Below are positions 7,892-9,298 of a stretch of DNA of 33,715 bases, in pieces. Numbering within the stretch: the first letter of the stretch is position 1; each line of letters begins with the position of its first letter. Source of the stretch: a virus (Duplodnaviria; Heunggongvirae; Uroviricota; Caudoviricetes); the IMG/VR virus record IMGVR_UViG_2534682164_000009; one strand, given 5' to 3'. The notes under the pieces are model-generated. The model was not told the DNA's origin. It was given only the letters and a program-made list of their open reading frames with translations, and did not search any database. Both the position numbers and the translations under genes were made by a program.

Positions 7892-8089
7892 ATGCTAAAA
7901 CAGCAGGATATGACAGAAACCGCCAGAGTGGTGTTTAATGAATTAAGCGTTACCGAACCGGCGACAGTCGGGGAGATAGCGCAGAATACTTACCTTTCAC
8001 GCGAACGCTGCCAGTTAATACTGACCCAGCTGGTTATGGCGGGTCTGGCAGACTATCAGTTCGGTTGTTACAGACGCCTTCCGCAGTGA
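7892..8089 (+). CDS. small putative winged-helix DNA-binding protein (65 aa)
   Basis: HTH-like segment ATVGEIAQNTYLSRERCQLILTQLVMAGL; own terminator overlaps its stop. Confidence 0.45.
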   Translation: MLKQQDMTETARVVFNELSVTEPATVGEIAQNTYLSRERCQLILTQLVMAGLADYQFGCYRRLPQ

Positions 8090-8099
8090 AGGCTTTTTT
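8076..8099 (+). terminator. rho-independent terminator at end of the 65-aa ORF
   Basis: Hairpin GCCTTC-CGCAGT-GAAGGC followed by T6. Confidence 0.6.
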
Positions 8100-8239
8100 A
8101 TTTGTGGTAAATGGGCGGCTGGTGGGTGTTAGGGGCACCCACCAGCCATCTGCTCATGCGTTGGGTTCACAAGCAAACCTCAGGCCCACTGCTTTGCGCA
8201 AAAGCAGAATGAGCCTATCAGAGACAGGCTTAATGATCC

Positions 8240-9298
8240 ATGCTTAATACTGTAAAAATATCCAGTTGTGAGTTAATCAACGCCGACTGCCTGGAATTTA
8301 TCCGGTCGTTACCCGAAAATTCTGTTGACCTGATAGTCACGGACCCGCCGTACTTTAAAGTGAAGCCTGAGGGCTGGGATAACCAGTGGAAGGGCGACGA
8401 TGATTACCTGAAGTGGCTGGACCAGTGTCTGGCGCAGTTCTGGCGGGTGCTGAAACCTGCCGGAAGTCTTTACCTGTTCTGTGGTCATCGCCTGGCATCT
8501 GATATCGAAATCATGATGCGTGAACGCTTCAGTGTGCTGAACCATATTATCTGGGCGAAGCCGTCCGGACGCTGGAACGGATGCAACAAGGAAAGCCTGC
8601 GGGCGTATTTCCCCGCCACAGAGCGCATTCTGTTCGCGGAACATTATCAGGGGCCGTATCGTCCGAAAGATGCCGGGTATGCGGCGAAGGGCAGTGCACT
8701 GAAACAGCATGTGATGGCCCCGCTGATTTCTTACTTTCGTGATGCGCGAGCTGCCCTGGGGATAACGGCAAAACAGATTGCAGATGCCACAGGAAAGAAA
8801 AACATGGTGTCGCACTGGTTCAGTGCCGGTCAGTGGCAGTTGCCGAATGAAAGCGATTATCTGAAATTACAGGCGCTGTTTGCCCGGGTGGCAGAAGAGA
8901 AGCATCGGCGTGGTGAACTGGAAAAGCTCCACCACCAGCTGGTGGATACGTATACCTCACTGAACCGGCAGTATGCGGAGCTGCTGAGTGAATATAAACA
9001 TCTGCGGCGGTATTTTGGCGTGACGGTGCAGGTGCCGTATACCGATGTGTGGACGCATAAACCGGTGCAGTTCTATCCCGGGAAACATCCGTGCGAAAAA
9101 CCGGCAGAAATGCTGCAGCAGATAATCAGCGCTAGCAGTCGTCCGGGTGACCTGATTGCAGATTTTTTCATGGGGTTGGGTTCGACAGTGAAAGCGGCAC
9201 TGGCGCTCGGGCGTCGTGCAATTGGCGTTGAGCTGGAGACTGAACGTTTTGAGCAGACGGTTCGGGAAGTACAGGATTTAGTCAGCCAGAACGGATGA
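8240..9298 (+). CDS. orphan DNA methyltransferase (beta-class, probably N6-adenine)
   Basis: N-terminal DPPY motif (LIVTDPPYF) and C-terminal FxGxG AdoMet motif (DFFMGLGST); no adjacent restriction endonuclease candidate. Confidence 0.85.
   Translation: MLNTVKISSCELINADCLEFIRSLPENSVDLIVTDPPYFKVKPEGWDNQWKGDDDYLKWLDQCLAQFWRVLKPAGSLYLFCGHRLASDIEIMMRERFSVLNHIIWAKPSGRWNGCNKESLRAYFPATERILFAEHYQGPYRPKDAGYAAKGSALKQHVMAPLISYFRDARAALGITAKQIADATGKKNMVSHWFSAGQWQLPNESDYLKLQALFARVAEEKHRRGELEKLHHQLVDTYTSLNRQYAELLSEYKHLRRYFGVTVQVPYTDVWTHKPVQFYPGKHPCEKPAEMLQQIISASSRPGDLIADFFMGLGSTVKAALALGRRAIGVELETERFEQTVREVQDLVSQNG

Follow-up and report, generated by a model that had tools for sequence, protein, structure and literature searches.

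How can a prophage carry a DNA methyltransferase that harms its host and keep it silent? The question is raised by positions 7892-9298 of a 33,715-nucleotide (nt) stretch of DNA from a virus of the Caudoviricetes (IMG/VR record IMGVR_UViG_2534682164_000009; the whole stretch is called the window below), where a small open reading frame of 65 amino acids (ORF65) is followed by the gene of a methyltransferase closely related to M.EcoGII. The natural control of this enzyme matters, as expression of M.EcoGII is toxic and prophages with its gene nevertheless occur in about 60% of E. coli genomes; we found no explanation of its silencing in the literature that we searched. The gene pair in the window is very probably a copy of an accessory late-gene cassette of lambdoid prophages, which encodes the promiscuous adenine methyltransferase M.EcoGI/GII. 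Directly upstream of the methyltransferase gene lies a conserved three-way junction, which was selected on the minus strand. Tentatively, with a probability of roughly 0.4, we propose that the cassette brings its own silencing module: a cis-antisense RNA of about 135 nt, which ends 3' in the three-way junction, plus a dedicated winged-helix protein. The copy in this window is most likely an inactive relic.

The features on which the argument depends are the following:

7830..7870, plus strand: conserved box 5' of ORF65, CTTGCTG-N12-AGAGTTAYMTGT, with promoter-like geometry
7892..8089, plus strand: ORF65, 65 amino acids, ATG at 7892, stop codon at 8089
8076..8099, plus strand: intrinsic terminator of ORF65, stem 8076-8093 overlapping the stop codon, then T6
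8110..8189, minus strand: three-helix junction with helices P0 (8110-8116/8184-8189), P1 (8117-8128/8136-8147) and P2 (8148-8157/8169-8178)
8190..8285, no strand assigned: rest of the leader and first 15 methyltransferase codons, with conserved synonymous sites; possible 5' part and promoter of an antisense RNA
8240..9298, plus strand: methyltransferase gene, 352 amino acids

The methyltransferase and its winged-helix partner

The methyltransferase matches the Pfam family N6_N4_Mtase (E=7.9e-42; PF01555 spans residues 29-340). DPPY occupies residues 35-38 and FxGxG (FMGLG) residues 310-314, with the target-recognition region between them, which is the motif order of the beta class. The original prediction had described the enzyme as a beta-class methyltransferase lacking a partner endonuclease, and both parts of this description hold: the gene is prophage-borne, is flanked by Q, tRNA, esterase and tail genes, and no endonuclease gene adjoins the pair in the window or, with the exception of phage phiP27, in the relatives examined. 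In phiP27 (L002) a GIY-YIG nuclease gene, absent from the other relatives, lies upstream at 2702-3931, between the Q-like gene and ORF65.

Compared with M.EcoGII, 324 of 349 residues are identical (93% over the full length), the reference being the sequence printed in the supplement of PMC11551740 and machine-read from the PDF, so that a few differences may be artefactual and the true identity perhaps slightly higher. The clean, 349-residue copy in a prophage of E. coli 55989 is identical at 336 of 348 positions (97%), and is itself 94% identical to the printed M.EcoGII; relative to M.EcoGII the window enzyme has three extra residues at the C-terminus. M.EcoGII is a beta-class enzyme of 349 amino acids from a prophage of E. 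coli O104:H4 (Murray 2018, PMC5778455). M.EcoGI and M.EcoGII both belong to the O104:H4 strain C227-11 (Fang 2012; Murray 2018, PMC5778455), share 333 of 349 residues, and have homologs in phage 1720a-02 (PMC5778455). M.EcoGII methylates adenines of DNA and RNA whatever their context, is fully active alone in vitro, is not expressed in the lysogen and is harmful when constitutive (PMC5778455). Its homologs leave no methylation signature in the methylomes of lysogens, and no M.EcoGII structure is deposited in the structure database. Judged by its amino acid sequence, the window enzyme is a member of this characterized family and is predicted to methylate N6 of adenine independently of sequence. 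The original prediction had suggested deriving a target motif from methylome data of the host strain; given 93% identity to an enzyme acting in any context, such a search is expected to find none. M.EcoGIX, our first guess for the enzyme, was rejected, since the literature describes it as plasmid-borne and single-strand-specific.

It was also asked whether the catalytic motifs carry inactivating changes. DPPY is intact. Motif I reads GLG in the window, whereas 184 of the 186 orthologs recovered have GSG (Ser313Leu); one further contig (L190), with a methyltransferase that does not differ in the aligned part, also has GLG. The FxGxG pattern is still satisfied with leucine at this position, which is occupied by valine in CcrM and by threonine in a Thermus enzyme, both of them solved, active relatives. 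Judged from these comparisons, Ser313Leu, though rare and found in a context of decay, cannot be called inactivating.

The 65-residue, winged-helix-like reading frame with its own terminator is present as first described, and in the relatives, too, ORF65 is followed by a hairpin plus T-run, although the stem sequences differ. Of 77 genome loci that could be assessed, which range from Escherichia to Xenorhabdus, Providencia and Morganella within the Enterobacterales, 61 encode a homolog of ORF65 (39-100% amino acid identity) at a distance of 140-350 nt upstream of the methyltransferase. When the scan was started from ORF65 instead, 70 of 71 viral contigs had the methyltransferase 151-152 nt downstream. 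The ratio of nonsynonymous to synonymous substitution rates (dN/dS) is 0.05-0.5, and ORF65 is a real gene under purifying selection. The family is small (334 database clusters), its members are named 'TrmB family regulator', 'DprA-like winged helix' or 'hypothetical' in their sources, and it falls in PHROG 331 (phrog_331), labelled as of unknown function.

A profile search of ORF65 had been proposed in the original prediction. There was no match among the NCBIfam models, and in the Pfam scan all matches stayed under the curated cutoffs, with weak similarity to winged-helix families only (TrmB, E=0.0026) and none to HTH_3; a sequence search of the PDB found no match either. The fold was suggested by AlphaFold, whose best model (predicted local distance difference test, pLDDT, 88.9) consists of a helix, a strand, two helices and a beta-hairpin wing. 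With this model Foldseek returned MarR, IclR and methyltransferase-N-terminal winged-helix domains at template modelling (TM) scores of 0.66-0.83 and a best E of 2e-3. A literature lead, kinship with the N6-methyladenine-sensing winged helices of DpnI type, was dropped, as no such match appeared in the Foldseek top 50. On the predicted structure ORF65 is a generic winged helix, not an Xre-type controller, and its most likely role is to regulate the cassette by binding DNA.

The box 5' of ORF65 is conserved across genera, from Escherichia to Xenorhabdus. RNAalifold predicts zero pairs in it and it has no consensus sigma-70 match; its TTGCTG-17-TAYNTG arrangement has promoter-like spacing and a poor -10 hexamer, and no C-box-like tandem palindrome is evident. 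Were the box a promoter, ORF65 would resemble a moron in having a promoter and a terminator of its own.

The position of the pair is as constant as its composition. Matches to the DNA between 7600 and 9700 occur in 299 phage records, among them many of Shiga toxin (Stx)-converting phages and those of phiP27 and 1720a-02, and in 3394 of 5426 complete E. coli genomes, with a best identity of 97.1%. The relatives share the order Q, small hypothetical gene, 'DNA-methyltransferase', tRNAs. The placement between tR' and the tRNAs noted earlier was borne out, with a tR'-like terminator upstream (7748-7767) and the tRNAs downstream (9339-9588). In Klebsiella, Salmonella, Photorhabdus, Providencia and Xenorhabdus (one locus each) a Q antiterminator gene immediately precedes the pair, and the Q proteins of these five loci belong to three unrelated Pfam families. 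On the far side there is a lysozyme or endolysin gene in four of the five loci and a protein kinase gene in the Providencia locus. Because the cassette sits behind Q in five further genera, we infer, with good support, that in intact phages it is expressed late and in a Q-dependent manner, in agreement with the published silence in lysogens.

A conserved junction selected on the minus strand

The hairpin between the two genes was first described as a perfect stem of 11 bp at 8118-8146. It is perfect, and slightly longer: the stem has 12 bp (8117-8147), with arms at 8117-8128 and 8136-8147 and a 7-nt loop, and it is one of only two perfect short-loop inverted repeats of at least 12 nt in the window. 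The Chi-like sequence seen in it is an exact Chi, GCTGGTGG, which lies in both arms (8118-8125 on the plus strand, mirrored at 8139-8146 on the minus strand). Exact Chi sites are frequent in this part of the window: there are 11, where 1.43 would be expected, and none lies beyond the first 9 kb (724-8945); an overlapping head-to-head pair lies inside the methyltransferase gene (8932-8945). Chi was considered as the selected feature of the hairpin and rejected: the Providencia relatives keep the stem by compensatory changes and have lost Chi, whose presence in the hairpin is incidental.

Nor is the hairpin an element that stands alone. It is P1, one arm of a conserved three-helix junction. Conservation is higher in the approximately 130 nt preceding the methyltransferase ATG, where the mean column identity is 83%, than in the coding sequence. 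A covariance model of the element gave one match per locus, always ending at the methyltransferase ATG, with 46 strong matches in 697 kb searched on both strands. A scan of viral contigs for the 5' box of the element gave 116 cases, and in 112 of these the box was followed by the methyltransferase start at a distance of 129-131 nt. Thirteen loci without ORF65 have retained the element, thus ORF65 is not needed for it. Five viral contigs (L099, L137, L163, L182, L214) retain ORF65 and P1, and have the methyltransferase swapped right after P1 for an AT-rich gene of 237 codons, whose product looks AraC-like by eye at its C-terminus; a Pfam scan of the first 90 residues of this product gave no match.

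The strand on which selection acted can be told from the pairs themselves. Folded on the plus strand, the helices held many A-C oppositions, whereas on the minus strand RNAalifold found a clean three-way junction of -34.1 kcal/mol (-16.8 for a shorter plus-strand alignment). The pair statistics were taken from an alignment that had not been fitted to any structure. Canonical pairs fill 98.3% of the cells on the minus strand and 81.1% on the plus strand. On the minus strand seven pairs change on both sides, compared with 2.1 ± 0.9 in shuffled alignments, none of 500 shuffles reaching this number and slid controls giving at most three. In the 25 pairs compared, 184 cells that read A-C on the plus strand are G-U on the minus strand, and only eight are the opposite way. 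The minus-strand fold is the more stable one in 37 of 41 loci. Because of the G-U asymmetry and the greater stability of the minus-strand fold, we conclude that the junction was selected on the minus strand.

Several other identities of the element were tried. Its interpretation as a sense-strand leader or riboswitch (model R1) was superseded by the minus-strand analysis. A leader-peptide attenuator, suggested by a reading frame beginning ATG GGC GGC TGG TGG... with tandem Trp codons, was rejected, because the length of this frame varies and the Trp codons are absent in Providencia. Rfam 15 gave no match at gathering score over 8100-8245. The best match, to P26 on the minus strand at 8116-8180, reached 24.2 bits, short of the gathering score of 36; only a near-identical GC-rich hairpin, AUGGCUGGUGG...CCACCAGCC, accounts for it, the other helix being unmatched, and it was not accepted.

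How the methyltransferase may be kept silent

In an intact phage, Q would let RNA polymerase pass tR' and the ORF65 terminator, the methyltransferase would then be made late in infection and would methylate adenines of the progeny DNA regardless of sequence, and this modification may blunt restriction in the next host. Protection of progeny DNA, also suggested in the original prediction, is a probable role, and protection of phage DNA or counteraction of restriction has been proposed for the M.EcoGII family (Murray 2018, PMC5778455). The lysogen would keep the enzyme off because it is harmful to the cell. The visible barriers are the two terminators and a methyltransferase start that has no Shine-Dalgarno sequence. 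Transcripts that leak through may be silenced by the conserved, structured antisense RNA that we propose to lie across the methyltransferase leader.

The region between the junction and the 15th codon is suggestive in this respect. Identity at third codon positions is 0.85 in codons 1-15 and 0.41-0.67 elsewhere in the gene, and an invariant xACAGT, read on the minus strand at about 8250-8255, lies inside these 15 codons and could be a -10 element. The proposed antisense RNA would be about 135 nt long and would cover the leader and the start codon of a toxic gene. We regard its existence as a hypothesis with a chance a little short of even; by analogy it could act like P22 sar or sok.

Several observations weigh against this explanation of the cassette as a whole. 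Consensus sigma-70 scans for the antisense promoter were negative in the window and in the Salmonella and Providencia loci, and the putative RNA has only a short U-tract at its 3' end. In Photorhabdus and Xenorhabdus only P1 is present, where it resembles a plus-strand terminator. The persistence of the element in loci devoid of ORF65 shows that it does not require ORF65, and only one of the five AlphaFold models of ORF65 is confident, the other four having pLDDT values of 59-66. The rare Ser-to-Leu change in motif I also counts here, tempered by the Val and Thr of the active relatives.

The element could instead act in the sense mRNA, as a structured 5' untranslated region limiting translation of the methyltransferase or as an RNase III site. 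The plus strand also folds well (z = -4.05), P1 pairs equally on both strands, the bases just before the Shine-Dalgarno-less start codon can pair upstream, and in the plus-strand alignment 11 pairs change on both sides compared with 5.1 in shuffles, which supports P1 and a second helix. This explanation is nevertheless unlikely, as it leaves the 184 A-C mismatches, the lower proportion of canonical pairs and the less stable fold on the plus side to be accounted for, and only the minus strand gives P0 and P2 as unbroken helices. Quite improbable is a function of the hairpin as DNA, be it a Chi recombination hotspot, the junction of two modules, or a palindromic operator to which ORF65 binds. 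Such a function would fit the exact Chi on both arms, the local Chi enrichment and the mosaic boundaries that flank P1, where Stx2c phages begin to match the window (only from about 8109 onward) and five contigs exchange the methyltransferase, but a strand-asymmetric G-U excess is not expected for duplex DNA, Providencia preserves the stem while losing Chi, and the element persists in 13 loci that do not encode ORF65.

The remaining two alternatives concern the proteins. A small protein with a predicted DNA-binding fold, encoded immediately upstream of the methyltransferase and tightly linked to it, ORF65 might, as the original prediction suggested from its size, be a controller that times methyltransferase expression like the C-proteins of restriction-modification systems. 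We give this little credence: the fold is that of a winged helix rather than an Xre-type helix-turn-helix (HTH), with no HTH_3 match, the locus offers neither a restriction gene to delay nor an identifiable C-box-like repeat, the enzyme occurs without ORF65 in 16 of 77 loci, and M.EcoGII is fully active alone in vitro. An orphan methyltransferase could also be sequence-specific and act epigenetically on host genes in the lysogen, for which Dam and CcrM provide the precedent. For the window enzyme this is very improbable indeed, considering its 93% identity to a sequence-independent enzyme, the methylomes of lysogens, in which its homologs leave no signature, and the toxicity of constitutive expression. 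The best explanation is a copy of the M.EcoGI/GII cassette, which is held as very probable; that the cassette silences itself by an antisense RNA and the winged-helix protein is a tentative addition to it.

Prophage context and comparison with known systems

The part of the window between 6100 and 12400 is the late-regulatory region of a lambdoid prophage. Its further features are:

6100-12400: gene order DUF968/HNH gene, RusA, Q (PF03589), terminator, ORF65, terminator, hairpin, methyltransferase, three tRNAs, two STnc100, sialate-esterase-like gene
6847-7667: Q antiterminator gene (PF03589)
7673..7700, plus strand: putative late promoter pR', TTGATT, 16-nt spacer, TGgTAAATT, directly 3' of the Q gene
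7748-7767, plus strand: tR'-like intrinsic terminator, 7-bp GC stem plus T-run to 7773
9339..9588, plus strand: ileZ-argN-argO cluster of three tRNAs, which outside Escherichia is not part of the cassette

The putative pR' was assigned from its sequence and position; it scores 8/12, under the threshold of the scan tool. An equivalent of the tR'-like terminator lies 20-50 nt before the cassette in every related locus. The methyltransferase gene has no terminator of its own before the tRNAs. Linkage to the tRNA cluster as a general feature of the cassette was considered and rejected, as the tRNAs follow only in Escherichia. ARAGORN calls the first of them (9339-9414) a tRNA-Met (CAT), and the records of relatives call it tRNA-Ile (ileZ), i.e. 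the lysidine-modified reader of AUA. After the tRNAs there are two tandem copies of the prophage small RNA (sRNA) STnc100 (9664-9853 and 10131-10340; 123.6 and 161 bits), in the slot that the stx genes occupy in Stx phages; a 2026 preprint links STnc100 to PasD sRNAs. An Rfam match to the sok antitoxin RNA at 4259-4434 (112 bits) implies that the early or nin region of the prophage contains a toxin-antitoxin locus of hok/sok type.

The prophage in the window is defective. Compared with intact relatives the Q gene has three single-base insertions or deletions (indels; at about 7212, 7291 and 7574), two of them in A-runs, thus it is either a pseudogene or affected by homopolymer sequencing errors. 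The DUF968 gene is split, and the esterase-like gene (10563-12415; DUF1737, SASA, DUF6645), a single gene of about 620 codons in relatives, consists of two overlapping reading frames. Genes for lysis, terminase and head proteins are missing from the stretch that leads from the esterase gene to tail gene Z (16661); insertion sequences (IS) have taken the place of the lysis and head genes. The IS of the window are IS1 (941-1444), two IS3-family copies (2558-3376 and 13532-14350) and IS21 istA/istB (14744-16470); this load of IS and the names given to ORF65 homologs point to a host resembling Shigella. A 12-nt inverted repeat, GCGTATTTTTCA...TGCAAAATACGC, occurs in three copies (141-174, 2484-2517 and 14391-14424), two of which adjoin IS3-family transposase genes and are probably part of that IS. 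It is because the prophage is defective that we consider the cassette here most likely a relic; if the indels in Q are sequencing errors, this conclusion would be left with the missing structural genes as its sole basis. Expression of the late operon on induction, as originally predicted, agrees with the position behind Q and with the reported silence in lysogens, and is moot in this window, where Q is frameshifted and the prophage truncated.

As originally filed, the finding of an orphan methyltransferase in a late operon is an ordinary one. The enzyme family has been characterized, annotations of the gene pair exist for thousands of genomes, and several papers cite M.EcoGII as an in vitro reagent. 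The unreported parts are only the conserved winged-helix partner and the folded minus-strand element 5' of the methyltransferase. The window enzyme resembles M.EcoGI and M.EcoGII in the beta-class motif order, the length of about 350 residues and in being a prophage-borne orphan, and differs from them in the C-terminal extension, in Ser313Leu and in its defective prophage. Like the Dam enzymes of T4, T2 and P1 and the promiscuous alpha-class phage methyltransferases, it is an orphan enzyme thought to modify progeny DNA and to evade restriction. It differs from these in belonging to another enzyme class, in its predicted lack of any sequence specificity and in being encoded as the first cargo of a Q-dependent late operon.

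With the morons of lambdoid phages, the label given to the cassette in the original prediction, it shares the optional insertion between conserved late-region landmarks and the terminator of ORF65. Morons are, however, typically expressed from the prophage, whereas the cassette has no promoter of its own that is recognisable by sigma-70 consensus, and lysogens are reported not to express the enzyme, thus the label fits only in part. The resemblance to type II restriction-modification systems is a small DNA-binding protein encoded just upstream of the modification gene. C-proteins are Xre-type HTH dimers, which bind C-boxes and delay the restriction gene, whereas ORF65 is a predicted winged helix encoded where there is no restriction gene.

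The closest likeness of the proposed RNA is to cis-antisense RNAs that silence harmful genes, such as P22 sar (against ant), lambda OOP (against cII) and sok (against hok). We infer this analogy from a structured, opposite-strand RNA of about 135 nt that would lie over the start region of a gene toxic when leaky. The putative RNA, read from sequence, differs from sar, OOP and sok by its three-way junction. The partner gene and the minus-strand element are two testable candidates for the natural control of the enzyme, and both may help to control it tightly in engineered strains. If the proposal is true, the RNA family would be a new one, and most E. coli genomes would have a sar- or sok-like safety catch for a promiscuous DNA-modifying enzyme.

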